From contig CAVPPK010000002.1 in the NCBI GenBank assembly GCA_963707385.1, positions 354,673 through 418,672 of the forward strand: 64,000 bases of DNA, given 5' to 3'. Source of the stretch: an uncultured bacterium (lineage in GTDB: Bacteria; Actinomycetota; Actinomycetes; S36-B12). A model generated the notes under the pieces. It searched no databases. It had not been told where the DNA came from and saw nothing but the letters and a program-made list of their open reading frames with translations. Positions 4,350-60,395 of this stretch are shown here, in pieces; positions within the stretch are counted from its first letter, which is position 1; each line of letters starts with the position of its first letter. Position numbers and translations under genes: made by a program.

Positions 4350-5168
4350 CGCACGAGTACGAGCTCGCCCATCTGTCGATGATCGCCGTGCCACCGGCAC
4401 GCCTCGCGGGGGTCGCGCGCGACGCGGGCTACCAGTACACGGGGTTCCGGCTGACCCCGAGTCCGTCGACGGGCATCGACCACCGGGTGCTCGGCAACGA
4501 TCGCGCGCTTGAGGCGCTGCGTCGCGCCGTCGACGACGCCGGCATCGCCATCCTCGACGTCGAGGTGATCCGGATGAAGGACCCCTCCGCCGTCGAGGCG
4601 GCACGGCCCCTGCTCGAGGCCGCCCAGGCGCTGGGCGCGCGGTACGTGATCGCGACCGTCGAGGACGACGACCCGGTGCGCCGCGTCGAGACCCTGGCGC
4701 GCATGGCCGAGCTGGCCGCCGAGCACGGCACGGGCATCGCGGTGGAGTTCATGCTGTTCTCGGCCGCGCGTGACCTCGGCACCTGCGTCGGGATCGTGCA
4801 GGAGGCAGGCGCCGCCGAACGTGGTCGGTCCTGGCCGACTCCCTCCACCTCGAGCGGTCGGGCGGCCACCCCGACGACCTGCGCCGGTACCCGGCGACCC
4901 TGTTCCCCTACGCGCAGATCTGCGGTGCCACGGGCGCTGGCCCGGCCGCCGACCCCGACGCCGCTCGGGCCGAGGGGGTCAGGGCGCGGCTCATGCCGGA
5001 CGAGGGCGACCTGCCGGTGAGCGCAGTTCATCGCCGCCCTGCCGCCCGACGACGATCCTGAGCGTCGAGGCACCGCTGGCCGGCCAGGCGGATCCGGCCG
5101 ATCCGCTCGCGCTGGCCGTCGCGATGCTCGCCTCGGCGCGTCGCGCGGCCGGGGAGCCCGCGGCGTGA
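4346..5168 (+). CDS. Sugar phosphate isomerase/epimerase (xylose-isomerase-like TIM barrel); several frame interruptions between 4800 and 5050
   Basis: MTHEYELAHLSMIAVPPARLAGVARDAGYQYTGFRLTPS...GIAILDVEVIRM...ARYVIATVEDDD...GIAVEFMLFSA. C-terminal piece LSVEAPLAGQADPADPLALAVAMLASARRAA ends at 5168 (GTGA overlap with the next gene). Confidence 0.7.
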
Positions 5169-5918
5169 CCGATTCCCGCGCCGAGGAGTTGCAGATCGAC
5201 GGCCTGGTCAACGCCCGCGACCTCGGCGGCCTGCGCACCCGCGACGGTCGCACGATCCTGTCGCGCCAGGTGATCCGCAGCGACAACCCCAAGGGCATGA
5301 CGGACCAGGGCCAGGTCGACCTCTCCGAGGTCGGTGGCTCCCGCGCTCGATCGTCGACCTGCGCATGGTGTTGGAGGTCGCGCGCGAGGGCTACACGATC
5401 GGACACGACCCTGCGCGCGTCGTCAACCTCCCGATGCTCCCGCAGTCGGGCGTGAACCAGGAGCAGATCGACGCCGGCGCCGCCGACAACCTCGTCGAGG
5501 ACTACCTGCGGCAGATCGACGTCAACGCCGGATCGATCGTCGAGGCGCTCCGCCTCGTCGCGGACCCGGCGAACCGGCCGGTCGTCGTCCACTGCACGGC
5601 GGGCAAGGACCGCACCGGGATCGTGGTGGCGATGCTGCTCGACATCCTCGGGCGTCGATCACGAGGTGATCGTGGCCGACTATCACGTCACGTCGGGCAA
5701 CATGGCGCCGATCCTGGAACGCATCCGCAGCGCGCAGGTGTTCCAGGACAACGGTCTGGCGGCCGCACCGATGTGGATCTTCGAGTCGCACCCGGAGACG
5801 ATGCGCGACTTCCTCGCGCGTATGACCGAGCGCTACGGCAGCGCCGAGCAGTGGGCGCTCGCAGAATGGCCTGAGCCCCGACGACATCGCCCGCCTGCGC
5901 GACACCCTCCTCGCCTGA
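5165..5918 (+). CDS. Tyrosine/serine phosphatase-like protein (CX5R, Y_phosphatase3-type); frame interrupted about 3 times
   Basis: GLVNARDLGGLRTRDGRTI, catalytic loop VVVHCTAGKDRTGIVVAML, then VIVADYHVTSGNMAPILERI... and C-terminal LSPDDIARLRDTLLA with TGA at 5916-5918. Confidence 0.8.
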
Positions 5919-5940
5919 TCTCCCGCGCTGCCACCTTGGC

Positions 5941-5996
5941 GAGTGCGTAGTTGTGGCCCGTTTCGGGCCGGCCACAGCGGCCACAACTACGCACTC
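5941..5996. terminator. Bidirectional stem-loop between convergent genes
   Basis: Perfect 18-bp inverted repeat GAGTGCGTAGTTGTGGCC (5941-5958) / GGCCACAACTACGCACTC (5979-5996). It lies between the phosphatase (+) and SDR (-) stops. Confidence 0.7.
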
Positions 5997-6832: not shown

Positions 6833-7358
6833 TCAGTGGCCCGCGGAGGGGGAGTCGCTCGGGCGTGCGCCCTCCGACGCCTTCCACATCTTGGCGCTGT
6901 CGAAGCCGATGCGGGTGACGGGGACCAGCTCCAGGACGACCCGGTCCGGGGAGTCGAGCATCGTGCGGAACGCCTCGGCCTTCTCGGGCTCGCCGGGGCG
7001 CATGGCGTTGGCGAACTCCGGGAGCACCCAGTCGAGCGTCTCCCGATCACGGTGGACGACCGCGGTGCACTTGTAGGTGATGGAGCGGCGCTCCTTCACG
7101 GACGAGCCCTTCGACGTGACCGCGATGCTCACGCGCGGGTCCTTGCGGATCGACGCGATCCGGGGGCGCTCCTCGCTGGCGGTCAGCCAGAAGCGACCGT
7201 CGCGGTAGATGAAGTTGACGATCACGCCCATCGGCCAGCCCTCCTTGCCGGCCCAGATGAGGGTGCACTCGGTCTGGGCGTCCAGGAGCTCCAGCTCGTC
7301 CTGCGGAATCGAGGGTGTAGGACGTCACGTCCTCCCAGTTCTTCGCCTGATCGGCCAT
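6833..7358 (-). CDS. Pyridoxamine 5'-phosphate oxidase-family (FMN/F420-binding split barrel) protein; one frame interruption near 7300
   Basis: N-terminus MADQAKNWEDVTSYTLDS (AAGGAG RBS upstream of ATG 7358) joins MGVIVNFIYRDGRFWLTASEERPRIASIRKDPRVSIAVTS... (ORF 6833-7231). Confidence 0.7.
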
Positions 7359-7442: not shown

Positions 7443-7895
7443 ATGCCTTTGACACTCGAGCAGATCACGGACCGGATCGAGATCGACGAGCTCCTCGCCC
7501 GCTACTCGCGGGCCCTGGACTTCCGGCACTTCGACGAGCTGGAAGGGATCTTCACTCCCGACGCCGAGTTCGACGCAGGAGGTCTCGGCCATCCGCACGG
7601 TCCGGCCGCCATCCGGGCGATGATCGAGGGGACGATCGGCGGCCTCGACGCCACCCAGCACCTCGTGGGCAAGAGCATCATCGAGTTCGGCGAGGACGGG
7701 AACTCGGCCGAGGTGCGCACCTACCTGATCTCCCAGCACATCCGGGAGTCGGCGCCCGGGCCCGTCAAGCACTACTTCCTCGGCGGGGAGTACTTCGATC
7801 GCGTCGTCCGGACCGCCGACGGCTGGCGGATCGCCTTCCGTCGCCTCGACCGGATGTGGAAGCAGGGCGACCGGGCCGTCATCTCGGCCACCTAG
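7443..7895 (+). CDS. NTF2/SnoaL-like (SnoaL_4) protein, intact
   Basis: 150-aa single-frame ORF. ITDRIEIDELLARYSRALDFRHFDELEGIFTPDAEFD...HLVGKSIIEF... is typical of the NTF2-like family. Confidence 0.85.
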   Translation: MPLTLEQITDRIEIDELLARYSRALDFRHFDELEGIFTPDAEFDAGGLGHPHGPAAIRAMIEGTIGGLDATQHLVGKSIIEFGEDGNSAEVRTYLISQHIRESAPGPVKHYFLGGEYFDRVVRTADGWRIAFRRLDRMWKQGDRAVISAT

Positions 7896-7942: not shown

Positions 7943-9711
7943 ATGAGGAGCACCATGGACACCTGGATCGCCGACACCGAGCCGAGCGAGCGCTTCCCGA
8001 TCTACACCCGCGCCAACGCCGACGAGGTCGGCCCCGACCCGTTCACGCCGCTGAACTGGACCCTCACCTGGGAGCAGGGGATCGTGCCCGGGAACGGCCG
8101 ACGCGTGGATCGCGCTCGGGACGTTCGAGCCGGACGAGTTCCTCTGGACCAAGCCGGAGACCTACGGCTCCTGGGGCGGCTACTTCTACAACCAGGTGTC
8201 CCTCGGCCGGGTGTTCGGCTACCGCATGCCGGGGGCGACGCCCGACGCCATCGACATCTCGTTCTTCGGCCAGAACCCCACGGTGCCCGCCGTACGTCCA
8301 CGATCCGCGCGACGACAACGAGGCGTGCTCGGCGAAGCTGGGCGAGTCCTTCGGCGCGATCCTCGGCGGGCGCTCAGGAGGCGCTCTCCGCCGACTACCT
8401 GGCGCAGGCAGCCGCAGTGGCGGGCCAGCCGGCCGGACCTCGCGGCCGATCACCGACGCCGAGCTCGTCGAGTACGGCCGCACCTCGGCGCGGTGGCAGC
8501 GCCCGGGCTGGGACGCCTACGCCCAGGTCGTCATCGGCGCCACCGTCGGTCCGCAGATCGTGCAGGGGATCGCCGAGGCCGTCGGCAAGCCGGAGCTGGC
8601 CATCCAGATCTTCGGGGCACTCGGCGACGTCGCCTCGGCGGGCATGTCCGGAGCGGGTCTGGGACCTGTCGCGCCTGGTCCGCGACTCGCGCGGAGCTGA
8701 CCGCGGCCTTCGATGCCGGCGTCGAGGGTCTCGGCCGACCGGCTCGCGCGCCGAGCCCGGCAGCGGCGGAGTTCAACGCCGCGTTCGCCGACCTGCTCGA
8801 GACGTTCGGGCATCGCGGCGTCAACGAGTGGGAGATCAGCGCCGACACCTGGCTGATCAACCCCACGCTGGCGTACCAGATGATCGACCGCGTGCGCCGG
8901 CAGGACGACGCGAACGTCGCCGACGCTGCGTGCCGCCGAGTCGGCCACAGCGCCGGGAGGCCGCCGTGGCGGAGCTCACCGCCGCGGTCGCGGGCGACGA
9001 GGCCACCGCCGGCCTGCTGGCCGCCGGCATCGCCGTCCGGCCAGTCGTCCTACCGGCTGCGCGAGGCGGGCAAGAACGCCACGGTCATGCTCATGCAGGA
9101 GCCCAAGCTCGCGTTCCGCGAGCTCGGCCGCCGGATGCACGAGCGCGGCCACCTCGTCGACCCGATGCACGTGTTCCAGCTGCTCGAGAGCGAGCTGGAC
9201 GGCGTTCCTCGCGGATCCGGCGTCCTTCACCGACACCCTCGCCTCGCGGCACGCCGCAGTGGCTCACCCTCGCCGAGCTCGAGCCGCCGTACCTCGTCAT
9301 CCGCGACCGGCCGATCCCGCCGATCAGCGAGTGGCCGAAGCGCCGCCGGTACGTCCGAGGGCGAGGCGGCCGCCGTCGGGCACCGAGATGAAGGGCATCC
9401 CCGGCTCGCAGGGCACCGTCACCGCTCGCACCCGGGTCATCCTCGACCTGGCCGACGCCGACTCCCTCGAGCCCGGCGAGATCCTCGTCTGCACCACGAC
9501 GGACCCGTCGTGGGTGCCGCTGTTCATGATCGCCAGCGCGGTCATCTGCGAGATCGGCGCGCAGGCAAGCCACGCGGTGATCGTCAGCCGCGAGCTCGGC
9601 GTCCCGTGCGTCGTCTCGCTGGCCGGCGCGAGCAGCATCGCTGCCCGACCGGGCACCCTGGTCGAGCTCGACGGATCGACGGGCGCCGTCACGGGTCGTC
9701 GAGACGGCGTG
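7943..9711 (+). CDS. PEP-utilizer 'mobile domain' (swivelling phospho-His) protein, paralogue 1, no ATP-grasp; at least 8 frame interruptions
   Basis: N-terminus MDTWIADTEPSERFPIYTRANADEVGPDPFTPLNW matches paralogues 2 and 3. C-terminus GIPGSQGTVTARTRVILD...EPGEILVCTTTDPSWVPLFMIASAVICEIGAQASHAVIVSRELGVPCVV. Probable end ...VVETA with TGA at 9709-9711. Confidence 0.75.
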
Positions 9712-10427
9712 ACGGTCAAGCCACCGCCCACGCCGCCCGAGCCGCCCTTCTCCGTCCGGTACCCCTTCCTCCTCCTCGAGGAGGAAGGGGTCACCCGGCT
9801 GACGATCGTGCGGCACGCGCAGCAGGACTATCCGACGGACGACGAGTTCGACCACGCGGCCTGGGCCGACCCGCCGCTGAGCGGCCTGGGTCGCACCCAG
9901 GCGATGGCGCTGTCGGCCGTGCTCGGCGAGCAGGACGTCGACGTCGTCGCCTGCAGCACGATGCGCCGCGCCATCGAGACGGCGGAGATCGTCGCCTCGC
10001 CGCATGGCGCTGACGCCCGTCGTCCGGCCCGAGCTGGTGGAGATCCAGTCCTACCGCGACCTCGAGGAGGGCGTCGATCCGCAGACCCTCGTCGACCCGG
10101 CGGAGTGGGCCGCGCGCGAGCAGGCGTTCTACCGGCAGGCTGATGTGGGACCACATGTTCTTCAGCGAGGGCTCTGCCGAGTTCCGTGCGCGTGCCGTCG
10201 GCGCTGTCGACCGCCTCGTGGCCGACTACTCCGGGCAGCACATCGTGCTGGTGAGCCACGGTGGCGTGATCAACGCGGTCATCGGCGCCATCCTCGGGAT
10301 CGAGGAGGACATGTTCTTCCTGCCGAACCACTGCTCGATCAGCTCGGTGTGGATCAAGGGCGACGTGCGCCGGGTGCACTCCGTCAACGAGCGCCAGCAC
10401 CTGCACGTCGGCATCCTCACGAACTGA
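9708..10427 (+). CDS. Histidine phosphatase family protein (1 of 3); frame interrupted near 10000 and 10140
   Basis: GTG overlaps the upstream stop (GTGA). RLTIVRHAQQDYP (RHA variant of the RHG motif), PPLSGLGRTQA, LVSHGGVINAVIG. Pieces lie in ORFs 9259-10143, 10004-10495 and 10143-10427. Confidence 0.7.
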
Positions 10428-11302: not shown

Positions 11303-12511
11303 ATGACCGACACCGTTCCCCAGTACCGCGCCGGCGCGCACACCGCGATGAGCCGCGAGGAGGCCCTCTCGATCCTCGACCGACTGGTGGGCCATCTGCG
11401 CAACGGCACGACCGACATGGCGCCCGAGCAGATGGAGATCCCGATCTCCTACTACCTCGACCAGGAGCTGTGGGAGCGCGAGATCAAGGAGATCTTCCAC
11501 GCCATCCCGCTGCCGGTCGGCACGTCGGCGGAGCTCGCCGGCGTCGGCGACTACAAGACGATGCGGGTGGTGGGCAAGGAGATCATCCTCGTGCGCGGCA
11601 AGGACGGGCGCATGAACGCGATGCTCAACGTCTGTCGTCACCGGGCGATGAAGCTGCTTCCCGACGGCTGCGGGAGCTCGCGCCGCTTCACCTGCTCGTA
11701 CCACGCCTGGACGTACGACACCGATGGCAGGCTGACCGGCGTCCCCGGCGAGGACACCTTCGGCGACGTCGACAAGGACGACTACAGCCTCGTTCGGCTG
11801 CCGTGCGAGGAGCGCGCCGGCTTCATCTTCGTCGGACTGACCCCCGGGATGGACCTCGGGATCGACGCCTGGCTCGGCGACGTGGCGCCGTACCTCGAGG
11901 CCCTCGAGCTCGACAAGTGCACGCACTTCACGACGAAGACGCTGCCCGGGCCCAACTGGAAGGTCACGCTCGACGGCTACCTCGAGGGCTACCACTTCAG
12001 CGCGCTGCACCCGAACACGGTGGCGCTGACCAACCACACCAACCGCATGACCTTCGACCGCTTCGGCCCGCACGTCCGCAACGTGTTCGCCCTGAAGACC
12101 CTCGACGCGATGATGGAGACGCCCCGCGAGGAGTGGGATCCGGCTGCGGCCATGGGGCTCGTGTACTGGATCTTCCCGGGCATGTCGATCGCCGGCGGCT
12201 GGCGCGAGCGCACGGTCGTCTCGATCATCCTGCCGGGCGACTCGTGGGGGGAGTCGATGACGTGGCAGACGACGCTTCTGCGCACGCCGCCGCAGACCCC
12301 GGAGGAGCTGCTCGAGGCGGAGAAGACGGCCGAGTGGTTCTTCGCGGCCTTCCGCGACGAGGACTACACGGCCCAGGCCGACGTCCAGAACGGGCTCGCC
12401 TCGCTGGCGGACAAGCACATGATCATCGGACGCAACGAGATCGCCGTCCAGCACGCCCACGAGACGGCGCGGCGGCTGCTGGCGGGGGAGCCCGTCCACG
12501 GCCCTCGGTAG
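11303..12511 (+). CDS. Rieske [2Fe-2S] non-heme-iron oxygenase alpha subunit (alpha-only type), paralogue 1, intact
   Basis: CRHRAMKLLPDGCGSSRRFTCSYHAW (CxH...CxxH), iron site NWKVTLDGYLEGYHFSALHPNT. 402 aa in one frame from ATG 11303. No beta-subunit gene follows. Confidence 0.9.
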   Translation: MTDTVPQYRAGAHTAMSREEALSILDRLVGHLRNGTTDMAPEQMEIPISYYLDQELWEREIKEIFHAIPLPVGTSAELAGVGDYKTMRVVGKEIILVRGKDGRMNAMLNVCRHRAMKLLPDGCGSSRRFTCSYHAWTYDTDGRLTGVPGEDTFGDVDKDDYSLVRLPCEERAGFIFVGLTPGMDLGIDAWLGDVAPYLEALELDKCTHFTTKTLPGPNWKVTLDGYLEGYHFSALHPNTVALTNHTNRMTFDRFGPHVRNVFALKTLDAMMETPREEWDPAAAMGLVYWIFPGMSIAGGWRERTVVSIILPGDSWGESMTWQTTLLRTPPQTPEELLEAEKTAEWFFAAFRDEDYTAQADVQNGLASLADKHMIIGRNEIAVQHAHETARRLLAGEPVHGPR

Positions 12512-12611: not shown

Positions 12612-14329
12612 ATGTCAGAGAAGGCCTGGCTCACCGACACCGAGCCCAGCGCGAAGTTCCCCGTCTTCACCCGGCTCAACGCCGCAGACGTCATGGCCGA
12701 CCCGATCACGCCGCTGGGCGCATCCATGTGCTGGATCCCCAACGTGCTGCCCGGCTGGGCCTCCGGCTACGTCGAGGACGTCTGCTTCACGGCCGACGAG
12801 CTCACCGACGAGTCCGCGGTGGCCGGGTTCTTCTACGGCTACCTGTACGTCAACCAGAGCTCGGTGCGCGTCCTGGGCATCCGCAAGGGCATGACCGCGG
12901 AGATCATCGACTCCATCTTCTTCAACTCCCCGGGTGCGCCGCCGCACGTCGCGTCCCCGAGCGACCAGAACGAGGCGCTGTCGGCGCTCGGCGCCGCGCG
13001 CGCCGGCTGGGTGCTGAGCACCTCGAAGTTCGAGGGCGCCGACGAGGACGCGGCCATCGCGGACGACCTGCGCCGCAACCGTCCCAACCTGAGGGCCATG
13101 AGCAACCGCGCCCTCGTCGCGCGCGCTCGCTCCGTGATGCCCTACGAGCGGCTCGCCTGGCGCTCGGAGCAGATCGGCTCCTCGAACGCCGCCGTCGGCC
13201 CGGCCGTCGCCGGCCAGATGCTCGGCGCCGAGAAGGCGCACCTGCTCGTGACGATCCTCGGCTACGCGGGCGACGTCGAGTCCGCCGCACCGACCTATGC
13301 GCTGTGGTCGCTGTCCCGCACGGTCAAGGGCAGCCCGGAGATGACGGCGCTGTTCGACAGCGGCGTCGACAACGTCGTCGCGCAGCTGCCCACCGCGACC
13401 GGCGGCTTCTGGAGCGAGTTCGCCGCGTTCATCGCGGAGTTCGGCTACCGCGGCCCGTCGGAGTGGGACCTCGGCACCGAGTCCTGGGAGTCCAAGCCGT
13501 CGCTCGCGCTGGCGCTCATCGACAAGATGCGCCAGCTCGACGACTCCGAGTCGCCGTCGGCCAAGCAGGCCTCGCACGCGGCGGCCACCGACAAGGCGAT
13601 GCTCGAGGCGACCGAGGGCATGGACGCGGCCACCGAGGCCATGTTCCGTGGCGCCATCGGCTCGGCCCGTCGCTTCGCCGGCTGGCGCGAGAGCGGCAAG
13701 TCGTCGTGCATCAAGGTCATGAACGAGGCCCGCATGGCGCTGATCGAGCTGGGCAGCCGGCTCGAGGCCCAGGGCGTGCTGGACCACTCGCGACAGATCT
13801 TCATCGCGCTCGACAGCGAGCTGGACGCCCTCGCCCTCGGCGAGACCACGCTGCTGCCGACGATCCGCCAGCGCGAGACGGACTGGAACGCCCTGAAGGA
13901 CCTCGAGGTCCCGACCTTCCTCGACGGCTCCAAGCCGATCCCGCCGATCTCCGACGTGCCCCGCAAGGGCGCGTCCAGCGCGGAGCGGGCGACGGTGGGT
14001 GCCGTGTTCAACGGTGCCGCTGCCTCGCAGGGCGTCGTCGAGGGTCGCGCGCGCGTCGTGCTCGGCACCGACGCGATCGGCGAGTTCGAGCCGGGCGAGA
14101 TCCTCGTCGCCCCGCAGACCGACCCGTCCTGGACGCCGCTGTTCATGGTCGCCGTCGGCGGTCGTCGTCAACACCGGCTCGATGGGCTCGCACGCGATGA
14201 TCGTCGCCCGCGAGCTCGGCATCCCGTGCGTCGCCGGCCTGCCCGGCGCGACGCACGATGTTCAAGTCCGGCGACCTGCTCCGGGTCGACGGCGCCAAGG
14301 GCACCATCGAGGTGCTCGAGACCGTCTAG
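12612..14329 (+). CDS. PEP-utilizer mobile-domain (swivelling phospho-His) protein, paralogue 2, no ATP-grasp; frame interrupted near 14160 and 14260
   Basis: MSEKAWLTDTEPSAKFPVFTRLNAADV... runs in one frame for ~1550 nt. C-terminus EPGEILVAPQTDPSWTPLFMVA..GSMGSHAMIVARELGIPCVAG...LLRVDGAKGTIEVLETV with TAG at 14327-14329. Confidence 0.85.
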
Positions 14330-46476: not shown

Positions 46477-46490
46477 GTCCCAGAGGTGCA

Positions 46491-50601: not shown

Positions 50602-50603
50602 CC

Positions 50604-51563: not shown

Positions 51564-51606
51564 GGCTTCCCTCGAGACCCCGAGCGGGGGAGGATGACGG
51601 AAACTG

Positions 51607-51646: not shown

Positions 51647-51673
51647 TTGCGTCACCCCGCCGAGAGGATCCCC

Positions 51674-52819
51674 ATGACCACCACGCCCTTCGTGCCGCCC
51701 ACCCGCGGTGACGGCCCGCTGCGCTTCTCACCGGAGATCCCGAACACGCCCGGGCCAGTCCGAGACGATCCCGTCGAGCTGGTACACCGATCCCGAGCGC
51801 TTCGAGCTCGAGCGCAAGTACGTGCTCAACCCCAGCTGGCAGATCATGTGCCGCTCGGAGCAGCTGGAGAACGTCGGCGACCACGTCGTCTGGGAGGGCC
51901 ATGGCGAGACCATCGTCATCACCCGCAAGAAGGACGGCTCCCTCGGCGGCTTCCACAACGTGTGCCTGCACCGCGGCGCCCGCATCGTGCGCGACTCCGG
52001 CGAGTGCGCCCGGCGCTTCAAGTGCCCCTGGCACGACTGGGTCTACGACTTCGACGGCCAGGTCGTCGGCGTGCCGGACCGCGAGGACTTCGACCAGGAC
52101 ATCCTCAAGGGCCTCAAGGCGCACCAGGTCGAGCTCGACGAGTGGGGCGGCTGGGTGTGGGGAGTGCTCGACGGCCCCGGCGTCGCCCCGTCGCTGCAGG
52201 ACTGGCTCGGCGACGACATCCTCAAGGACCTCGGCGCCTACCGCATGGAGGACATGTTCCTCAAGGAGAAGCTGACCTGGTACGTCGACGTCAACTGGAA
52301 GGTCGTCGTCGACGCGTTCAACGAGTTCTACCACGCGCCGGCGCTGCACCACATCCCGCCGCAGGACGTCAAGGACGGCCGCGAGATGCGCATCTTCGAG
52401 TTCGACCGCCACTCGATGATGGTCGTCCCGCTCAAGGGCGCGCTGCCCAAGCTGCAGGAGAACCCCGACCACCAGTCGGTGGCGATCTGCCACTACACGA
52501 TCTTCCCGACGAGCGTGTTCAACAACAACCCCGAGCACCTGCAGCTGTTCCGGTCGGTGCCGGTCGCGCACAACAAGACGCGGTTCGAGACCTGGGAACT
52601 CTGGTACAAGACCGACGATCCCGACTACATCGCGCGCACGCAGCGGCACTGGGACCACCTGAAGATCGTCGTGGGCGAGGACGTGTGGACCTGGGAGGAC
52701 GTGGCTGCGGCATCGCGGTCGTCGTACTACAAGGAGAACTTCTTCAACGACCGGGAGTGCAAGATCCCGTTCTTCCACAACCAGGTCAACCGCATCATCG
52801 AGGAGGGTGTCGCGCGTGA
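51674..52819 (+). CDS. Rieske [2Fe-2S] oxygenase alpha subunit, paralogue 5 (third subfamily); leaves frame near 51750 and returns near 52790
   Basis: CLHRGARIVRDSGECARRFKCPWHDW, NWKVVVDAFNEFYHAPALH. The N-terminus and the stop are in the frame of ORF 51647-52819, and the body is in the frame of ORF 51708-53651. Confidence 0.8.
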   Translation: MTTTPFVPPTRGDGPLRFSPEIPNTPGPVRDDPVELVHRSRALRARAQVRAQPQLADHVPLGAAGERRRPRRLGGPWRDHRHHPQEGRLPRRLPQRVPAPRRPHRARLRRVRPALQVPLARLGLRLRRPGRRRAGPRGLRPGHPQGPQGAPGRARRVGRLGVGSARRPRRRPVAAGLARRRHPQGPRRLPHGGHVPQGEADLVRRRQLEGRRRRVQRVLPRAGAAPHPAAGRQGRPRDAHLRVRPPLDDGRPAQGRAAQAAGEPRPPVGGDLPLHDLPDERVQQQPRAPAAVPVGAGRAQQDAVRDLGTLVQDRRSRLHRAHAAALGPPEDRRGRGRVDLGGRGCGIAVVVLQGELLQRPGVQDPVLPQPGQPHHRGGCRA

Positions 52820-53651
52820 CCAGCCGGCAACTGACGTGGCGCCCGACGGTCTCCGACTTCACCTTCTCGTTCAACTGCATCGGCGAGGTCCCCCTCGCCG
52901 AGCGGTTCGCCGCGGCACGTGCCGCCGGGTTCACCGACGTCGGCATCAGCGTGCGCTGGACGAAGGCATGGCTGGAGGAGGGGCACACCCTCGACGAGCT
53001 CGACTCGCTCATCGCGGACGCGGGCATCCGAATCACCGAGCTCGAGGCGATCCGCGTGATGCGCGAGGACCAGGATCCGCTCGAGGACCTGGCCGCGGCA
53101 TTGGCCGAACGTCTGCGGCCCGCGCGACTGCAGGCGATCGGCCCGTACGACGGCACGCTCGACGACGCGGCGGCTCGCGCGGGCCGGGTCGCCGACCGCT
53201 TCGCCCCCTGGGGCGTCGACGTCGTGCTCGAGCCGCTGCCGTTCACCAACATGCAGACCCCGGCCGACGCAGCGGCCATCATCATGCGCGCCGATCGGCC
53301 GAACCTGTCGATGTGCATGGACGTGTGGCACCTGTACCGCATGGGGCTGCCGCTGTCGCACCTGGACGGCCTGTGGCCGTACATCTCGACCGTGCAGTTC
53401 AACGACGGTGCCGTCGAGAGCGAGTTCCCCGACGACCTACGCGAGGACTGCCTGCTGAACCGGCGGGTCCCCGGCGAGGGGCGAGTTCGACCTCGTCGGA
53501 CTCGTGCGAGCTCGCAACGCCCACCGCCCCGACTCGACGTTCTCGATCGAGGTCATCAACCCCACGCTGCGTGCAGCAGGACGCCGGACTCTCCGCGCGC
53601 CAGATCGCCACCGGGCTGGACGCGGTGCTCGCGGCCAGTCGGGCCGCCTAG
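52816..53651 (+). CDS. Sugar phosphate isomerase/epimerase (xylose-isomerase-like TIM barrel), second copy; 2 frame interruptions
   Basis: GTGA overlap start. FTFSFNCIGEVPLAERFAAARAAGFTDVGIS, VDVVLEPLPFTN, MCMDVWHLYRMG, STVQFNDG, C-terminus ATGLDAVLAASRAA. Confidence 0.7.
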
Positions 53652-53683
53652 ACCCCGACGGACCACACAGGAGAGAAGGAACC

Positions 53684-54160
53684 ATGACCAGCTACCGCGT
53701 CGACGGGCTTCGCTTCCCGGATCGCTTCGACATCGAGCAGTTGATGTACCGGTACGCCAAGGCCGCCGACATGGCCGACATCGAGACCCAGCTGACGGTC
53801 TTCCACGACGACTGCCGCGTGAACTTCAGCGGCGACACCTGGCTGGAGGGCCACGACGACCTCCGCGCCGCCTGGCAGAGCGCCTACACCCGCTACCTGC
53901 AGACCTCGCACGCGGTCACGAACATCTCCATCACCTTCACGGGCACCGACGACGCCGAGGCGGAGAGCCTCATCACGGCGTGGCATCGCGATGCCCAGGG
54001 CAAGGAGTGGACGCTGCACGGCCGCTACGTCGACACCTGGTACAAGGGCGTCGAGGGCTGGAAGATGAAGACCCGTCAGATCGTCGCGGCGGGTGCCGTG
54101 GGCCGTGACGAGTCGACGCTCACGATGATGCAGCGCCTGACCATGAGCGACGGACACTGA
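53684..54160 (+). CDS. NTF2/SnoaL-like protein, intact
   Basis: MTSYRVDGLRFPDRFDIEQLMYRYAKAADMADIETQLTVFHDDCRVNFSG...HAVTNISITF...WKMKTRQIV. The stop overlaps the next ATG (TGATG). Confidence 0.85.
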   Translation: MTSYRVDGLRFPDRFDIEQLMYRYAKAADMADIETQLTVFHDDCRVNFSGDTWLEGHDDLRAAWQSAYTRYLQTSHAVTNISITFTGTDDAEAESLITAWHRDAQGKEWTLHGRYVDTWYKGVEGWKMKTRQIVAAGAVGRDESTLTMMQRLTMSDGH

Positions 54161-54957
54161 TGGAGCGGATGCTCGGCCTGGCTGCCGTCGTCACCGGCGG
54201 CGCGCGCGGCATCGGCGAGGGCATCGTCCGTCGGTACGTGTCGGAGGGCGCGCGCTGCGTGATCGCCGACATCGACGTCGAGGCCGGTGAGAGCCTGGCC
54301 GCCGAGCTCGGCGACGACGTCGCCTTCATCCGCTGCGATGTGACGAGCGAGGACGACATCGTCGCCGCGATCGACCTGTGCGTCGAGCGGTTCGGCGCGC
54401 TCGACATCATGATCAACAACGCCGGCGTCTCGGGCGTCACAGGGCCGATCCAGGACACCGAGCTCGCGGACTTCGATCGCACCATGGCGATCCTGACGAC
54501 CAGCGTCTTCCTCGGCACCAAGCACGCGATGCGCGTCATGAAGGAGCAGGGGCACGGCTCGATCATCAACACGTCCAGCACGGCCGGCGTCCAGGGCGGC
54601 CTCGGCCCGCACGTCTACACGATGGCCAAGCACGCAGTGGTCGGGCTGTCGAAGTCGGTGGCGGTGGAGGCCGCTCCGCGGGGCATCCGCGTCAACGTCC
54701 TGTGCCCGGGAGCGACCCTGTCGTCGCTCACGGCCGCTGTGGTCACGGGCGACAAGGACAACCTCGACGCCGCCTACGAGCGGCTGTCGTCGAAGTACCC
54801 GGGCGGCAAGGCGCCGCGCCCGGAGGACATGGCCAATGCGGCCGTCTGGCTGGGCAGCGACGAGGGCAAGTTCATGAACGGCGCCGTGATCATCATGGAC
54901 GCCGGCAAGGAGGTCCTGTCCGACCGGGCCGCCAAGTTCTACCCGATCGAGTCCTGA
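54160..54957 (+). CDS. SDR family oxidoreductase, intact
   Basis: LAAVVTGGARGIGEGIV, INNAG, NTSSTAG...YTMAKHAV, RVNVLCPG. 265 aa in a single frame. Confidence 0.9.
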   Translation: MERMLGLAAVVTGGARGIGEGIVRRYVSEGARCVIADIDVEAGESLAAELGDDVAFIRCDVTSEDDIVAAIDLCVERFGALDIMINNAGVSGVTGPIQDTELADFDRTMAILTTSVFLGTKHAMRVMKEQGHGSIINTSSTAGVQGGLGPHVYTMAKHAVVGLSKSVAVEAAPRGIRVNVLCPGATLSSLTAAVVTGDKDNLDAAYERLSSKYPGGKAPRPEDMANAAVWLGSDEGKFMNGAVIIMDAGKEVLSDRAAKFYPIES

Positions 54958-55029: not shown

Positions 55030-55495
55030 GGGTCAACTTGCGGAGCGGCCGATCGTCGAGCTGCCGCTGAGGATCAGCCGCTCGTTGGCCAGCCGCACGC
55101 TGCAGCAGCGCCTCGCCCTTCTCGATGAGGGCGGCGTTCCGCTGGTCCATGACCAGGTCCATGGCGGCCGTGAAGGCGTAGCCCGCGCGGGCGTACTCGG
55201 CTGCCACGTCGGCCAGCAGGAGCGACTCGGTCGGCTGCAGGGCGTCGAGCCTCGCCTGCACGGTGGCGTCGCCGGTCGCCGTCGCGACCTCCTGCGCGAA
55301 CTCCCCGTAGAGCGCGATCTCCTGCTTCATCAGGGAGATCTCCGCCGCGCTGGCGTTCGCGGCGCTGTTGAGCGTCGCGATGAGCATGTGCAGGCGGATC
55401 TGGGCGGCGGGGTCGGTGATCCCGGGCATGACGTCGCGCATGAGCTGCTCGCAGACGTCCTCGAGGATGCGCGGGGTCGACGGTCGCGTGATCAC
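55025..55495 (-). CDS. Hypothetical helical protein translationally coupled to APH-type kinase 2
   Basis: GTG 55495 overlaps the kinase stop (GTGA). VITRPSTPRILEDVCEQLMRDVMPGITDPAAQIRLHMLIATLNSAANASAAEISLMKQEIALYGEF. Single frame. I recognise no family. Confidence 0.5.
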   Translation of the reverse strand: MITRPSTPRILEDVCEQLMRDVMPGITDPAAQIRLHMLIATLNSAANASAAEISLMKQEIALYGEFAQEVATATGDATVQARLDALQPTESLLLADVAAEYARAGYAFTAAMDLVMDQRNAALIEKGEALLQRAAGQRAADPQRQLDDRPLRKLTR

Positions 55496-56500
55496 TGGGA
55501 CGCCTCCGGTGCGTAGGGGAGCTTCAGGGCGATGTTCAGGTACAGGTCGTGGAAGTGCGCGGCGGCCGGGAGCAGGAACGGGCCCATCACGCCGCGGTGC
55601 TGGCCCTCGGCGACGTCCTCGAAGCCGCGCAGGATGTCCTCCACGAGGTGGATCGTGCCCAGTAGGAGGAAGTACTCGGTGATGGCGGGATTGACCTGCT
55701 CCTCGGTGAGGCCCGGTCTTCTCCCGGTAGAGGGCCAGGAAGGCCTCCGGATCCGGGTAGTACAGGTGAGGCGGCATGGGGATCTGCAGGTAGTAGCCGA
55801 GGTCGAGGCGAGGATCGCCGATCTTGGCGAACTCCCAGTCGATGATGTGCGGTTCGACACCCTCGGACAGCAGGAAGTTGCCCGGCTGGAGGTCCCCGTG
55901 GACGAGGGCAAGCGGTACCTCGGGCGGGATGTTCATGCGGATCTTCTTGACCGTGTAGGCGAGGATCGGATCCGGCTCGCCGAGGTTCTCCAGGATCCGG
56001 TCGTAGATCGCGATCACGCTGTCGATGTGCGCCCGCCAGCTCGCCGGCCGCTCGATCCCAGGATCGATCTTGTCGAGGGGAGTCGTGTGGGCCGACGCGA
56101 TGATGCTGACGAAGTCCTCGCGGGACTGGTCGAAGTCCGGGCCGCCGTCCAGGTACTTCTGCATCGACGTCGACTCGATGGCCTCCGACACGATGCACTT
56201 GCTGCCGAGGTACTCGCCCGTGGCGTCGTACCACCGCGGCCGGGGGATGCGGAAGTCGTCGAGGTCCTTGATCGCCTGCAGCAGCGCCCACTCCTGATCG
56301 CGATCGCTCCGGAAGACGCTCATGTCCTCGGGCGGGTCGCCACGCAGGACGAAGGCCTCCCGCGTCCCGTCGGCCCACTGGACCTCGGCGCGCACGGTGT
56401 CACGGCTGTAGCCGCCGGGGATCGGATCGGCGCTGAGGACGGTGGCGCCACGCTCGGGCTCGACGACGTCGAGGAACGACTGGAAGCGATCGATGTCCAC
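55492..56500 (-). CDS. APH/ChoK-fold kinase 2; one frame interruption near 55700
   Basis: GTG start with GGGAGA RBS. Brenner motif LVHGDLQPGNFLL, IIDWEFAKIGDPRLDLG. The C-terminus (LTEEQVNPAITEYFLLLGTIHLVEDILRG...) lies in ORF 55492-55911. Confidence 0.8.
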
Positions 56501-56536
56501 GGATCTCCCTATGCCTCGTGCGGGCGGTAGCTCAGG

Positions 56537-57013
56537 TCAGTAATGGTCGCGCGTGCCGCGCACGGTGTGCGGGCGCTTGGCGAAGTACTCCTCGGCGGTC
56601 GGCTCGGTGCGCGTCCAGTCGACGACCTCGGTCCGATGCGTGATGAGCCAGCGACCACCGCGGCGAGCGTAGCGATCGATGTACCGCCCGCAGATGAAGC
56701 GGTCGAATCCCTCGGTGGCGTGCTGGTGGAAGGCCTGGAAGTACACCTCGCCGGTGGCGGTGTCGCCGTCGATGGCGAGGTTGATCTGGCCGAGGAAGTG
56801 CTGGGTCGCCTGGTATGCGCCGAGCGCCCGCATGGCCATGTCCGGCATCTCGTCGGCGCCGCCGCGGAACGAGCCGTAGTGCGTCGTGGCGTCCTCGGAG
56901 AAGACGGAGCGGACGAGGGCGGGATCCAGCCGGTCGAGTCCGCGCATGTAGGTCGCCGCGAGGCCACGCAGCTCGTTCTCGTCGAGGAGGAGTCGCAGCG
57001 CAGGATCGGTCAT
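56537..57013 (-). CDS. NTF2/SnoaL-like protein, intact
   Basis: MTDPALRLLLDENELRGLAATYMRGLDRLDPALVRSVFSEDATTHYGSF...HFLGQINLAI...RWLITHRTEVVDW. The ATG overlaps the upstream stop (ATGA). Confidence 0.85.
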   Translation of the reverse strand: MTDPALRLLLDENELRGLAATYMRGLDRLDPALVRSVFSEDATTHYGSFRGGADEMPDMAMRALGAYQATQHFLGQINLAIDGDTATGEVYFQAFHQHATEGFDRFICGRYIDRYARRGGRWLITHRTEVVDWTRTEPTAEEYFAKRPHTVRGTRDHY

Positions 57014-58138
57014 GGTGCCAGCACGCATTCGAGGTGGCCGAAGCCGCGGTCCGACGGATCGTCGAGGTTCACGCAGATGGCGAAGTTCTCGGCCCAGGCG
57101 TCGGGCCGCTGCTGGAACCAGCCGGCCGGATCGCCGACGTCGACCGGATGGGACACGTCCCACACCTCTCCTTCGTGGTGGTCGTCGCCGCGGTAGACCC
57201 CGCGGCCCTGCCGGTCGGTGAACCCGTCGTGGTAGCCGCCGCCCTGGAGGTAGACGGGGGAGCCGACGGGCGTCAGCTCGTACCGGTCGACGGTGCCGTC
57301 CGGGCGGGTGAAGGTGACGCGGGTGCTGGTGGCGCGGGGGAGGCCGTCGACCCGGGTGGCGTCAGCGCTGACATCGACGTACGACCAACGCGGCTGTGTC
57401 GGGTCGAGCGGGATGACGATCGACTCGGGGGCGTCGAACGAGCCGTCCCCCTGCTGGTGGAACTGCCAGAACATCACGCGATCGGGCATCCGGATCATCG
57501 TCCACTGGCGCATGGCGAATCCCCGGCGCGGGTCGCGCGTCGTGTCCGGGGCGATCGCAGCCGAGGGCCCGCCTCCGGTGCGACCCATGCCCCACGAGTG
57601 ATCGCGCACGCCGACCCACGAGTCGGGAGTGACGGTGAGCGTGCGGCCGTCCACCGTGATCGACCCGGTGACGGCGCAGCACTGGTCGAAGTTGGTCCTG
57701 TCGTAGACCTTCCGGCCAGCGGAGAACCGGACGATGCGGTCCTCGAGGTAGGGCTCGTGCAGCCCGACCCAGTCGAGGTCGAAGCTGATGCCGTAGGGGT
57801 TGTCGCCGCAGGTCAGGCGCAGTCGGGTGAGCGGCTCGACGATGTCCAGGCGCAGCGGCCCGACCTCGATGTCGTCGATGCGCGGACGCAGCCGCCGGGA
57901 CCAGCCGCAGGTTGTGCTGCCGGCCGTCGACCGTGACGCACGCGAAGCCGTCGATGACGTCGGTGTTGGGGTACAGCCGGATGGCGGCGAAGAGGGTGGC
58001 CCCGGTGGCCTCGTCTCCGAGAGTGAAGTAGAAGCCGTCGTTCCAGTGCACCGAATCGCTGACGACGGAGTCGAAGGTGCCCCCGACCTGGTGCCGCGGG
58101 TACTCGTCCATGCGCGTCAGGCGTCCGGGGTCGGTCAT
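57010..58138 (-). CDS. Conserved hypothetical protein (about 375 aa, beta-rich); about 2 frame interruptions
   Basis: MTDPGRLTRMDEYPRHQVGGTFDSVVSDSVHWNDGFYFTLGDE..., DDIEVGPLRLDIVEPLTRLRLTCGDNPYGISFDLDW, C-terminal ORF 57010-57654. No family assignment from memory. Confidence 0.5.
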
Positions 58139-58199
58139 GGCAGGAGCCTACCGCCATTGCGGCTAGTTATGAGACAAAATGTCCTATAGAGTTCGGCTC
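58139..58199. promoter_or_regulatory. Divergent control region (57010 operon / epimerase-kinase-TetR operon)
   Basis: AT-rich. AGTTATGAGACAAAAT (58165-58180) is related to AGTTATCTAGACAACT at 46517. Confidence 0.4.
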
Positions 58200-59202
58200 A
58201 TGAAGACCCTCATCCTCGGTGGCAGCACGTTCGTCGGTCGGCGCATGGTCGACCTCCTCGCCCGGGAGGGCCACGACGTCAGCGTGCTCAACCGCGGGAA
58301 GACGGCGTCCAGCCTGCCGCCGGGCGTGAGCCGCATCGTGGGCGACCGCACCAGCACGGAGTCGATGCGGGCCGCCCTCGCCGGCACGGAGTGGGACGCG
58401 GTCATCGACGTCTCCGGGTTCGTGATGGCGGCCGGCGGCGGCGAGTTCGAGGAGCTGCTCGGGCTGCTCGACGGCCGGGTCGGCGCCTACGTCTTCGTCT
58501 CGTCGATCATGGCCTTCGAGCCCAGCGGCATCATGCCCTGGCGGGAGGACGCGCCGACGACGTCGGACCCGGTCACCACCTACGGCGGCTTCAAGGCCCA
58601 TGCCGAGCGGGCGATCCTCGACCTGCACGCTGCCACCGGATTCCCCGGCTCGGTGGCTCGCCCGGCGGCCATCTACGGGCCCGAGAACAACATCCACGAC
58701 ATGGAGACGGCGATGTTCCTGCGGCTGCGCCGCGGGCTGCCGATCCTGCTCCCGCACGAGGGCCTCGTGACCACCAGCTACGGCCACGTCGACGACCTGT
58801 GCCGCAACCTCCTCGAGATGGCGTCGCTGTCCGGCGGCCGCGGGCGAGGTCGTCAACGTCACGGGCGAGGGTGCGTCGTCCCGGGCCTTCACCGAGCTGC
58901 TCGCCGACATCGCCGGTGTCGAGCCCGACATCCGCGTGCTGCCGACCGGCTTCACGGACGCCAAGCCGGTCTACGGCCATCTGTTCGGAGTGAAGCACCA
59001 CGGCATCCTGTCCGTCGCCAAGGCCGCGGACCTGGGCCTGACGGTCGAGCGCGGCATCCGTCGCGGCTACGAGGAGACCTACGCGTGGTTCTGCGAGAGC
59101 CCGCTCGTCGACGCCCCTGACGCGATGTCGGATCCGATGTGGGGAGCCGGCTACGACTTCGCCCTCGAGGCCGAGGTGGCCGCCGCCCTGCGGGCCGGGT
59201 GA
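58200..59202 (+). CDS. NAD-dependent epimerase/dehydratase family protein; one frame interruption near 58845
   Basis: MKTLILGGSTFVGRRMVDLL (GxxGxxG), VFVSSIMAF, YGGFKAHAE (YxxxK), C-terminus YEETYAWFCESP... Confidence 0.8.
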
Positions 59203-60395
59203 TGGAGGCCCGCGTCCCCGAGACGGTGATCCGCGAGGCGATCGCTGCCGGGCTGGCCGACCCGTCGCTCGGCTCGGCTGAGCAGTGGGCGGCGGTCGAG
59301 GCGTACCTGCGACGGGCGCGGCCCGGATCCCTGGCCCGCTCGGCGGTCCCGCCTCGGCGCGGGGAGCGTGCCCGTGGCCGAGCTGCTCGGCTGGCTCTCC
59401 GACGACGTCGCCACCGCGGCGCCGCTGATGGGAGCGTTCACCAGCCATGACACGAGCATCGACCACGCCGTGGTCCTCGTCCCGGCCGCCGAGCAGGAGG
59501 TGCTCGCTCGGTGGCTCAGCGAGCGGGCGGGGGAGCCGGTCGAGGTCGTCAGCGCCAGCGTGATCGGTGGCGGGTTCTCACGACGGATGTGGCGGGCCAC
59601 TCTCCGCGAGGCCGGGGTCGAGCGCCGGGTGATCGTCCGCATCGAGCAGGGCGGCATGTTCGGGACGGACACGATCACGGAGGTGCGCACGATGCGCGCC
59701 CTGCACGCGGCCGGCTTCTCCGTGCCGGCGGTCGAGTCGGTGGAGGAGTCCGGGTCGGTGCTGGGCGAGCCCTTCTTCGTCATGGAGGAGGTGCCCGGCG
59801 TCGTGCGCCTGGACGACCAGGGACTCGACGACATCATCCGGTCCGTCGCCGACCTGCATCGGGTGCCGGTCACGGTGCTGGACGCCAGCGGGCGCACGTC
59901 GGAGCAGGTGGTGTCGGACAACATCGAGGGCTGGCGACGGATGTACCGCGCTCACTCGCCCGAGCAGCCACTGATCGAGCAGGGCGCGGACTGGCTGCAG
60001 GAGCACCTCGTGCCGACCGGCGCCGTCGGTGATCGTGCACGGCGACGCCGGACCGGGCAACGCGCTGTTCGATCCGGAGCGCGGCCTGACGACGATCGAC
60101 TGGGAGTTCGCGCACGTCGGCGATGCCGCCGAGGACTGGGCCTACCTCGCGCTCATCCGGGGACGGCGGATCATGGACGGCGACGCCTGGAAGGCCCGGC
60201 TGACGGCCGTCGCGGGCATCGACTACGCGCCGGAGCAGTGGCGCACGTGGCTGGCGTTCATGCACCTGCGCGGTGCGTGCGTGAACCTCAGCGCGCGCTC
60301 GGTCTTCGAGCGCGGACCCGCGCCGCACGGCGGACCAGCTCGCGATCGGTGTGGCCGTGCACCTGCGGTCCCTGTCGCAGCTGTCGGAGATCACC
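59202..60395 (+). CDS. APH/ChoK-fold kinase 3; about 3 frame interruptions
   Basis: The ATG overlaps the epimerase stop. GGGFSRRMWRATL, FFVMEEVPG, Brenner motif VIVHGDAGPGNALF, TIDWEFAHVGDAAEDWAY. The stop overlaps the TetR ATG (ATGA at 60392-60395). Confidence 0.7.

Follow-up and report, generated by a model that had tools for sequence, protein, structure and literature searches.

Three split-dikinase-like components and a candidate "phosphorylate, oxidize, dephosphorylate" logic in a conserved actinobacterial catabolic island

Why does a stretch of catabolic genes from an uncultured S36-B12 actinobacterium hold so many phosphoryl-transfer enzymes among its oxidoreductases? The stretch in question, referred to here as the window, comprises 64,000 nt of contig CAVPPK010000002.1 (GCA_963707385.1; positions 354,673 to 418,672, forward strand). 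An earlier note on this DNA had listed twelve such genes, namely three swivel-His proteins, one dikinase-like enzyme, three kinases of the aminoglycoside phosphotransferase (APH) fold, three histidine phosphatases, and two CX5R phosphatases, and had proposed that pathway intermediates are transiently phosphorylated and later dephosphorylated. Our analyses bore out the inventory: all twelve genes are present, as judged by Pfam on corrected translations and, for one APH-fold kinase, by structure. The best explanation that we can offer, with a probability of roughly 0.45, is that the window contains a conserved catabolic island whose core follows a "phosphorylate, oxidize, dephosphorylate" logic, like that of the Cre and Hpe systems, around three paralogous swivel-His proteins, here called S1, S2, and S3.

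RPH-like swivel-His proteins and their operons

S1, S2, and S3 (Table 1) are paralogs with ∼36% identity and one common architecture. Their orthologs, which are 578 aa long for S1 and 575 aa for S2 in a clean reference locus (L088, described below), contain PF27448 ("Rph_4th") and PF00391 only, with no ATP-grasp domain in the chain. In a PDB search, the sequence match to solved structures was limited to the C-terminal ∼300 residues of S3, corresponding to residues 572 to 864 of rifampicin phosphotransferase (RPH). The AlphaFold2 (AF2) model of an S3 ortholog (P0058; predicted local distance difference test [pLDDT] score of 87.8) had full-length matches to Listeria RPH alone (template modeling [TM] score of 0.67 to 0.70 over ∼590 columns; Foldseek, PDB), and its remaining PDB matches were restricted to the swivel domain. 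Among NCBIfam models, the best matches of the S proteins were RedH, PigC, "PEP synthase PRK06241" and RPH, all far below cutoff. Specifically, the RPH equivalog NF041857 gave 122.5 bits against a cutoff of 999, with model positions 559 to 862 alone matched. The catalytic histidine, His533, and its G-A-x-x-S-H loop are invariant in 24 of 24 diverse S sequences; the expected loop, lying no more than ∼50 residues from the C terminus, was T/S-x-x-G-G-x-x-x-H, and the S proteins carry G-A-x-x-S-H with V or I at −8.

The S family is large. It forms 783 clusters at 50% identity (E ≤ 1e-30), nearly all of ∼575 to 590 aa, and occurs in at least 597 species-representative genomes, among which Acidimicrobiia dominate and Streptomyces, Gordonia, Williamsia, and Amycolatopsis are also found. 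The S proteins constitute a previously unrecognized clade concentrated in Acidimicrobiia and other Actinomycetota. Natural fusions were also encountered: rare proteins join PPDK_N, the canonical ATP-grasp domain, to an S unit (P0391, P0293, P0316, and P0395), one has an N-terminal short-chain dehydrogenase/reductase (SDR) joined to an S unit (P0288), and some fused relatives of 1300 to 1490 aa have two swivel units. A further apparent fusion, of S1 with the histidine phosphatase that follows it, arises in the window from a one-frame read-through and was rejected as an indel artifact, as the orthologs are stand-alone 578-aa proteins and the two genes overlap by 4 nt in L088.

Judged from sequence and predicted structure, S1 to S3 have the architecture of HpeH, CreH, and PpsA, the substrate components of two-component small-molecule dikinases, and an equivalent enzymatic role is predicted for them. 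HpeH, as described by Dexter et al., consists of rifampin-binding and swivel domains, has RPH as its sole full-length structural match, and obtains its ATP-grasp function from the separate HpeI protein. The catalytic histidine of HpeH is essential. In Rhodococcus rhodochrous GD02, HpeHI phosphorylates acetovanillone, only the phosphorylated form is carboxylated, and HpeD then removes the phosphate. CreHI and PpsAB are built like HpeHI, with HpeH, CreH, and PpsA as the substrate/swivel components that initiate catabolism; PpsA carries the histidine and binds the substrate, and the mechanism of this split enzyme is β-phosphoryl transfer via a pyrophospho-His. The S proteins share with HpeH both the rifampin-binding-like and swivel domains and RPH as the only full-length structural match. 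They differ from it in forming a separate clade of shorter proteins (∼580 aa versus ∼640 aa), and the Hpe system itself differs in that HpeI is encoded beside HpeH, a biotin carboxylase acts next, and dephosphorylation falls to an enzyme of the NagD/HAD type. PpsABC of Thauera aromatica is likewise a split dikinase but is anaerobic, feeds a carboxylase, and has PpsB and PpsC encoded adjacent to PpsA.

The likeness to RPH raises the question of whether these proteins serve resistance rather than catabolism, with the RPH-like and APH-fold proteins phosphorylating toxic compounds (rifamycin-like or aminoglycoside-like) so as to inactivate them. RPH, together with PigC and RedH, does provide the best sequence and structure matches to the S substrate-binding and swivel domains, the APH folds of the island match resistance kinases, and homologs are annotated "rifampicin phosphotransferase" in source records. 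However, RPH carries in its one polypeptide an N-terminal ATP-grasp domain that is missing from the S proteins, the RPH equivalog score is far from its cutoff, and the operons hold oxygenases, dehydrogenases, and importers as well as phosphatases that would reverse a resistance modification. We consider xenobiotic or antibiotic inactivation very unlikely.

The gene context of the S proteins instead recalls the cre operon of Corynebacterium glutamicum, which a secondary source lists as creC (aldehyde dehydrogenase), creD (phosphohydrolase), creEF (P450 redox partners), creG (alcohol dehydrogenase), creHI (kinase), and creJ (P450). The central array of the window comprises 13 genes in the order SnoaL_4, Y_phosphatase3, aldehyde dehydrogenase, His_Phos_1, Rieske, Rieske, SDR, S3, reductase, Rieske, TIM barrel, SnoaL_4, and SDR. 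This array (41704 to 54957) has a single plus-strand terminator-like site, at 54947 in a terminator scan, and is syntenic in the circular contig of a relative (L001). As in operons of the Cre/Hpe type, a dikinase component, oxygenases, dehydrogenases, and phosphatases are found in one array. The array matches the parts list of Cre, an aerobic actinobacterial operon in which a swivel-His component stands beside an oxygenase and its redox partners, dehydrogenases for alcohols and for aldehydes, and a phosphohydrolase. The window differs in having Rieske α subunits in place of the P450, two phosphatases that belong to other families (PtpB-like and His_Phos_1), no ATP-grasp gene of the CreI kind, and additional SnoaL_4, TIM-barrel, and ThuA genes together with a sugar-type ATP-binding cassette (ABC) importer. 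The second S unit has the order SnoaL_4, S1, His_Phos_1, Rieske, and S2.

The phosphatases provide the next line of evidence. They resemble small-molecule or lipid phosphatases and not SixA: the nearest solved structures of the His_Phos_1 protein at 9708 are PhoE, CobC, and GpgP, and the CX5R phosphatases match MptpB and share its AGKDRTG P-loop, although MptpB is a secreted virulence phosphatase and the window proteins are cytoplasmic operon members. The earlier note had placed every phosphatase last or next to last in an operon of oxidoreductases. This holds in the window for the phosphatases at 5165, 9708, and 28336, but those at 42207 and 44445 are the second and fourth genes of the 13-gene array. 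The start/stop coupling that it had reported for three of them is seen as a GTGA overlap at 5165 and 9708 (for the latter, a 4-nt overlap in L088), while the gene at 44445 abuts its neighbor (TAG-ATG). Moreover, the phosphatase at 9708 is coupled not to an oxidoreductase but to the dikinase component S1. A His_Phos_1 gene is kept beside the Rieske, SDR, and S genes at ∼60% identity in Geodermatophilus, a Frankiales metagenome-assembled genome (MAG), and other MAGs (L002, L003, L009, and L051). The protein at 28336 retains the RHG nucleophile, with the second catalytic histidine replaced by serine (VVATSAGV), and may be inactive or specialized.

Taken together, the likeness of the S proteins to HpeH and CreH, the retention of phosphatases with Rieske, SDR, and S genes, and the small-molecule type of these phosphatases make transient phosphorylation, by analogy, the most likely reading for the S-centered operons. 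In such a scheme, an ATP-grasp partner encoded elsewhere, which may be common to all three S paralogs, would present ATP; the swivel histidine would become (pyro)phosphorylated and pass its phosphoryl group on to the bound substrate at a hydroxyl; the Rieske monooxygenases, SDR, and aldehyde dehydrogenase would oxidize the phospho-tagged intermediate; and the His_Phos_1 and/or PtpB-like phosphatase would take the tag off.

Frame correction, conservation, and enrichment

These assignments depend on corrected translations. Most of the genes named in the earlier note contain frame changes when translated directly, and 10 of the 12 phosphoryl-transfer genes are not intact open reading frames (ORFs) at the coordinates given there, being broken by 1-nt indels in the window and intact in relatives; the Y_phosphatase3 gene at 42207 to 42953 is an intact ORF. 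We used a 7-state frame path trained on the codon usage of the window itself, having dropped filtering by third-position G+C content and longest-ORF calling because of the frameshifts. The path contains dozens of same-strand frame switches within genes, ∼80 across the window. There are three in 5165 to 5918, ∼12 in S1, and one directly before the catalytic histidine of S2, where the ORF leaves frame at ∼14157. In the source's own annotation, S3 is cut short at 531 aa (P0081).

Read at face value, with 10 of 12 phosphoryl-transfer genes and many neighbors broken, the region could be a decaying pseudogene island that is nonfunctional in this organism. However, the indels occur at ∼1 per 100 nt relative to sequences of ∼90% nucleotide identity, the corrected path yields coherent full-length proteins without in-frame stops, and codon bias is kept in each shifted frame. 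Sister long-read metagenome contigs of the same type are broken at positions other than those in the window, and all island genes are intact in the circular 3.46-Mb MAG contig of a relative (ENA ERZ25074234, ctg13286_56x_c). We therefore treated the frameshifts as assembly errors and not as decay, which we regard as extremely improbable. The frameshifts are an artifact of a noisy long-read assembly, and would wreck automatic gene calls. G+C content is ∼70% along the whole window, and no tRNA gene or Rfam family was matched in it. A plasmid origin or a close annotated relative was considered and rejected, as the matches were short fragments of 75 to 83% identity only.

The circular contig served as the clean source of orthologs through two loci that lie 17 kb apart on it, L001 and L088. 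Across these two loci, synteny extends over the entire island at 71 to 82% amino acid identity, beginning with the first SDR operon and ending with the TetR gene that follows the last APH gene. We also compared family counts with a background of 1.26 Mb surrounding homologous swivel-His genes in other genomes, a conservative proxy rather than a genome-wide frequency. Against this S-anchored background, swivel domains (four observed versus 0.56 expected, P = 0.003) and His_Phos (three versus 0.36, P = 0.006) are enriched in the window; APH was observed two to three times versus 0.46 expected, and Y_phosphatase3 twice versus none in the background. The synteny of the island is stronger evidence than these counts.

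Table 1. Features of the window, with the S proteins first (coordinates in nt from the first position of the window)
Feature	Coordinates	Strand	Evidence
S1, RPH-like substrate-binding and swivel-His protein	7943 to ∼9711	+	PF00391, C-terminal; catalytic His motif GAQASHAVIV at 9556 to 9600
S2, RPH-like substrate-binding and swivel-His protein	12600 to ∼14340	+	PF00391, 85 bits; His motif at 14176 to 14220
S3, RPH-like substrate-binding and swivel-His protein	48848 to ∼50597	+	PF00391; His motif at 50434 to 50478
SnoaL_4 (NTF2-like), first gene of the S1 operon	7443 to 7895	+	PF13577, 102 bits; same place in L088
His_Phos_1 phosphatase, coupled to S1; RHA and SHG motifs	9708 to 10427	+	PF00300, 110 bits
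Rieske oxygenase α subunit, between S1 and S2	11303 to 12511	+	Rieske and Ring_hydroxyl_A
SnoaL_4, first gene of the central 13-gene array	41704 to 42100	+	PF13577; L001 synteny
Y_phosphatase3 (FCMAGKDRTG), second gene of the array	42207 to 42953	+	PF13350, 167 bits; nearest PDB entries 8dhi and 1ywf (MptpB)
Aldehyde dehydrogenase (CreC analog)	42984 to 44444	+	PF00171, 431 bits
His_Phos_1 phosphatase, RHA and SHG motifs, fourth gene of the array	44445 to 45089	+	PF00300, 98 bits
Two tandem Rieske oxygenase α subunits	45205 to 47841	+	Rieske and Ring_hydroxyl_A
SDR directly upstream of S3 (CreG analog)	47979 to 48764	+	adh_short; overlaps S by 1 nt in L001
FNR-type reductase with 2Fe-2S domain, then Rieske α subunit (CreEF/CreJ analogs)	50584 to 53000	+	NAD_binding_1 and Fer2; Rieske and Ring_hydroxyl_A; 3-nt gap after S in L001
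Xylose-isomerase-like TIM barrel, SnoaL_4, SDR; end of the array	53000 to 54957	+	Pfam
Operon A: SDR, ThuA-like, SDR, F420-type luciferase-like monooxygenase (LLM), xylose-isomerase-like TIM barrel	1002 to 5168	+	Pfam; overlapping stops/starts in the L088 operon
Y_phosphatase3 (PtpB-like CX5R, HCTAGKDRTG at 5590 to 5619), last of six-gene operon A	5165 to 5918	+	PF13350, 175 bits, frame-corrected
204-aa protein, partner of the PPDK-like gene	17992 to 18663	+	No Pfam/NCBIfam match
Noncanonical pyruvate phosphate dikinase (PPDK) paralog, 845 aa: divergent N-terminal ∼170 aa, swivel His, PEP/pyruvate-binding domain	∼18660 to 21315	+	PF00391 and PF02896
His_Phos_1 protein after E1a/E1b/E2 2-oxoacid dehydrogenase genes	28336 to 28981	+	PF00300, 65.5 bits after one frame fix
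Orphan APH/ChoK-fold kinase	29393 to 30475	−	AF2 model and Foldseek
One unit: Rv3168-like APH kinase (55492 to 56500), SnoaL_4 (56537 to 57013), Rv3169-family protein (57017 to 58140)	55492 to 58140	−	APH, 59.4 bits
NAD-epimerase/dehydratase-fold protein and APH kinase (59202 to 60400)	58200 to 60400	+	Epimerase; APH, 98.1 bits

ATP supply and the separate phosphoryl-transfer modules

A number of observations weigh against a Cre/Hpe-like core. No gene encoding only a PPDK_N/ATP-grasp domain was found in the 64-kb window (Pfam on all coding segments, with relaxed thresholds on unknowns), and no PPDK_N match lies within 10 kb of the S genes in eight loci of relatives (L001 to L007 and L088). With a sensitive iterated profile, a nucleotide-binding-domain (PpdK-like) ORF was found near only 5 of 87 S loci. 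To our knowledge, all characterized two-component dikinases require the ATP-grasp component, and the two components are adjacent in all of these systems. The S proteins are a distinct clade, with G-A and not G-G in the loop and with scores far below cutoff for RPH, PigC, and RedH. In 49 full-size loci, the neighbors of the S genes are chiefly SDR (41), F420-type LLM (26), and Rieske (19) genes, and the phosphoryl-transfer families are occasional neighbors (His_Phos in 8, APH in 10, and Y_phosphatase3 in 2). Finally, the dedicated ABC importer weakens the rationale offered for HpeHI, that of trapping a passively diffusing phenol. The proposal of transiently phosphorylated intermediates thus agrees with the HpeHI relatives of the S proteins and the Cre parts list, but is at odds with the lack of a local ATP-grasp gene and with the occasional presence of phosphatases and APH genes family-wide.

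How a dikinase component without an adjacent ATP-grasp subunit would be supplied with ATP is the puzzle that these data pose, and a second phosphoryl-transfer module of the window may bear on it. This module, consisting of a PPDK paralog and a 204-aa partner, lies 4 kb from S2 and is syntenic in L088. The PPDK paralog scored 610 to 627 bits against TIGR01828, below the cutoff of 843, with the alignment beginning only at model position ∼175 to 179; its clean ortholog gave 626.9 bits from position 179, and PPDK_N (PF01326) was not detected on that ortholog at E ≤ 0.1. The 204-aa protein contains the motifs FLPVN, WQ, NDHxDxxYD, and DSYHxxWxELH, and its gene overlaps the PPDK-like gene by 4 nt in L088 and in a further locus, L092. 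A profile of the 204-aa protein matched at least 582 metagenome stretches. Of 80 loci examined, 37 have a PPDK-like or PpdK-like ORF next to the 204-aa gene or fused with it, and only 43 have room downstream (module loci: window 17992 to 21315; L088 20670 to 21737; L092 3174 to 6355; and L089 to L168).

The closest known counterpart of this module is VadK (Rv1127c) of Mycobacterium tuberculosis, a PPDK-derived protein that autophosphorylates on its swivel histidine with ATP/Mg, copurifies with its operonic partner Rv1126c, and has been assigned, as a kinase, a regulatory role in the methylcitrate cycle. The window and many metagenome loci have the same two-gene layout of a PPDK-derived His protein and a small partner, and the 204-aa protein is probably Rv1126c-like, by gene arrangement and not by sequence alignment. 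Unlike VadK, which has 490 aa, the 845-aa window protein retains the phosphoenolpyruvate (PEP)/pyruvate-binding domain (PEP-utilizers_C).

One alternative, phosphorelay or transphosphorylation, would dispense with a classical ATP-grasp partner for the S proteins. The PPDK paralog, together with its 204-aa partner, could charge them from ATP or PEP, either by His-to-His transfer or at a shared nucleotide site. By a second route, the S proteins could shuttle phosphate from a phosphorylated product to an incoming substrate, with the APH kinases priming the pool. The lack of an ATP-grasp gene in the window and in the loci of relatives is what this alternative would predict, and HpeH alone moves phosphate from 4-phosphoacetophenone to acetovanillone. 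Further points in its favor are the syntenic position of the PPDK-like module near S2, the autophosphorylation of VadK on histidine with ATP, and the co-occurrence of S, the 204-aa gene, and a PpdK-like gene in Gordonia, Amycolatopsis, Kribbia, and one other locus. However, this co-occurrence is limited to ∼7 of 80 loci in each direction, the superfamily offers no known precedent for His-to-His transfer from one swivel domain to another, and the fused S relatives bear canonical PPDK_N and not the domains of the PPDK paralog. We find the phosphorelay doubtful as an account of the S proteins, and the PPDK-like module as their phosphoryl donor is speculative. We give a correspondingly small chance to a small-molecule phosphorelay in which a donor common to the S clade, for example a VadK/PPDK-like His protein with its Rv1126c-like partner, would charge the clade in trans, and from which polar substrates bearing a phosphate tag would pass to Rieske and F420-dependent oxygenases.

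The APH-fold kinases are distributed among further units. Both the kinase at 55492 and that at 59202 contain the HxDxxxxN and D motifs (the Pfam gathering cutoff for APH, PF01636, is 23.2 bits). The first (APH_55099) has Rv3168 (3ATS) as its best PDB match, and the ortholog of its neighbor scored 243.6 bits, above cutoff, against NF053593 (Rv3169_fam); this unit corresponds to the mycobacterial Rv3168/Rv3169 gene pair, here inside a catabolic island. The second has PDB neighbors that include 3dxp ("putative acyl-CoA dehydrogenase") and the kinase domain of ACAD11, and its pairing with an epimerase-fold gene is conserved in Geodermatophilus and Ilumatobacteraceae (L001, L002, and L049). Bacterial LvaA, an APH-fold kinase that phosphorylates the hydroxyl of a CoA-bound intermediate, is grouped with the ACAD10 and ACAD11 kinase domains. 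ACAD10 and ACAD11 phosphorylate 4-hydroxyacyl-CoAs as a step toward β-oxidation, the kinase reaction being followed by elimination, such that a CoA-bound catabolic intermediate is phosphorylated on its hydroxyl so that the phosphate can leave. The kinase at 59202 resembles them in its match to the ACAD11 domain but differs in having no fused or adjacent ACAD, its conserved partner being the epimerase-fold protein.

The third kinase, at 29393, gave no Pfam, NCBIfam, or PDB sequence match even at relaxed thresholds. The earlier assignment of this protein to the APH/ChoK fold was borne out not by sequence profiles but by its predicted structure and invariant catalytic motifs. Its AF2 model has a pLDDT score of 81.6, the top 50 Foldseek matches are all APH, ChoK, or fructosamine-kinase folds, and K49, the HxDxxxxN motif, and D233 are invariant. 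On this model, the protein belongs to the APH fold, outside the Pfam family as now modeled. Only six homologs were found in a collection of 5.8 billion proteins, none of them Pfam-labeled, and relatives at 60% and 39% identity have wholly different gene contexts.

The twelve genes do not form a single system but fall into at least four separately conserved modules. Outside the S-centered operons, the separate conserved modules of the island are the orphan APH-fold kinase, the PPDK paralog and its 204-aa partner, and two pairs that contain an APH kinase, one Rv3168/Rv3169-like and the other epimerase-APH. This division invites the alternative that the island is a mosaic of independent modules (S proteins and their oxygenases, a VadK-like regulatory His-kinase and its partner, the epimerase-APH and Rv3168/Rv3169 pairs, and stray phosphatases) that are co-resident in a paralog-rich catabolic region, have no common phospho-intermediate pathway, and act in part on proteins or housekeeping metabolites. 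Consistent with a mosaic, the 204-aa/PPDK-like module is conserved alone in hundreds of contigs, mostly without S genes, and its M. tuberculosis counterpart is described as a regulatory kinase; the Rv3168/Rv3169-like pair is conserved as a stand-alone unit; the orphan kinase occurs in unrelated contexts; the histidine phosphatase at 28336 lacks the second catalytic histidine; and kinases and phosphatases are infrequent beside S genes family-wide. Against it, the full set stays together at 71 to 82% identity, the phosphatases are translationally coupled within oxygenase/dikinase operons, and the counts exceed even the S-anchored background. In addition, S, His_Phos, APH, and epimerase-APH genes recur together in the distant lineages Geodermatophilus, Frankiales, Gordonia, and Ilumatobacteraceae. 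On balance, we judge such a mosaic somewhat unlikely. In Gordonia defluvii and Gordonia polyisoprenivorans (L066 and L085), we observed the gene order 204-aa protein, S, APH, LLM, APH, His_Phos_1, and SDR, with PpdK-like and aldehyde dehydrogenase genes upstream.

Oxygenases, candidate substrates, and significance

Five Rieske oxygenase α subunits are encoded in the window (at 11303, 39370, 45205, 46573, and 51751), and no canonical Rieske β subunit was found there. Their orthologs gave only sub-threshold GbcA-type and ring-hydroxylating matches, the best for the 11303 ortholog being GbcA-type. The window also contains ∼7 SnoaL_4 (NTF2-fold) genes, including those at ∼1 to 570 (minus strand), 7443, 41704, 53684, 56537 (minus strand), and ∼62000 (minus strand), and one ortholog has a weak Ring_hydroxyl_B match, so the SnoaL_4 proteins may serve as β-like partners of the Rieske α subunits. 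The LLM of operon A lies at 3352 to 4180; its ortholog (L088, 5485 to 6459) scored 267 bits, above cutoff, against TIGR03621, a model of the F420-dependent class. A PNPOx-like gene (F420/FMN-binding split barrel) is located nearby at 6833 to 7356. The island probably depends on coenzyme F420.

Genes for a sugar-type ABC transporter occur at 21304 to 23940 and 36595 to 39231. Its two Peripla_BP_4 binding proteins are encoded in the second of these stretches, and it further comprises a BPD_transp_2 permease and a double ABC_tran ATPase. A GntR/UTRA regulator is also present. The combination of this importer with ThuA and xylose-isomerase-like TIM-barrel proteins suggests a polar, hydroxyl-rich substrate (sugar- or cyclitol-like) and not a simple phenol or aromatic compound.

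The earlier note had regarded phosphorylation followed by dephosphorylation as not known for an aerobic Rieske-based pathway. The principle is in fact already established, both in aerobic actinobacterial catabolism (Cre and Hpe) and in CoA-linked catabolism, where ACAD10 and ACAD11 use a kinase and then elimination in β-oxidation. What is new here is the Rieske/F420-oxygenase context, the involvement of PtpB-like and His_Phos_1 phosphatases, the presence of three paralogous dikinase components in one island, and the systematic absence of an adjacent ATP-grasp subunit across the very large S clade.

The labels "rifampicin phosphotransferase" and "pyruvate, water dikinase" carried by such genes mislead resistome and metabolic surveys. 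If the proposed logic holds, it would provide testable functions for families now called hypothetical, namely the PF27448 proteins, the Rv1126c-like partner, Rv3168/Rv3169, and the orphan APH-fold kinase. Phospho-tagging would then be linked with oxygenases of the Rieske and F420-dependent types as well as with two further phosphatase families, and, carried out by split RPH-type dikinases, it would be widespread in environmental Actinomycetota, including the abundant aquatic and soil Acidimicrobiia, well beyond the few degraders of phenol, cresol, and acetovanillone.

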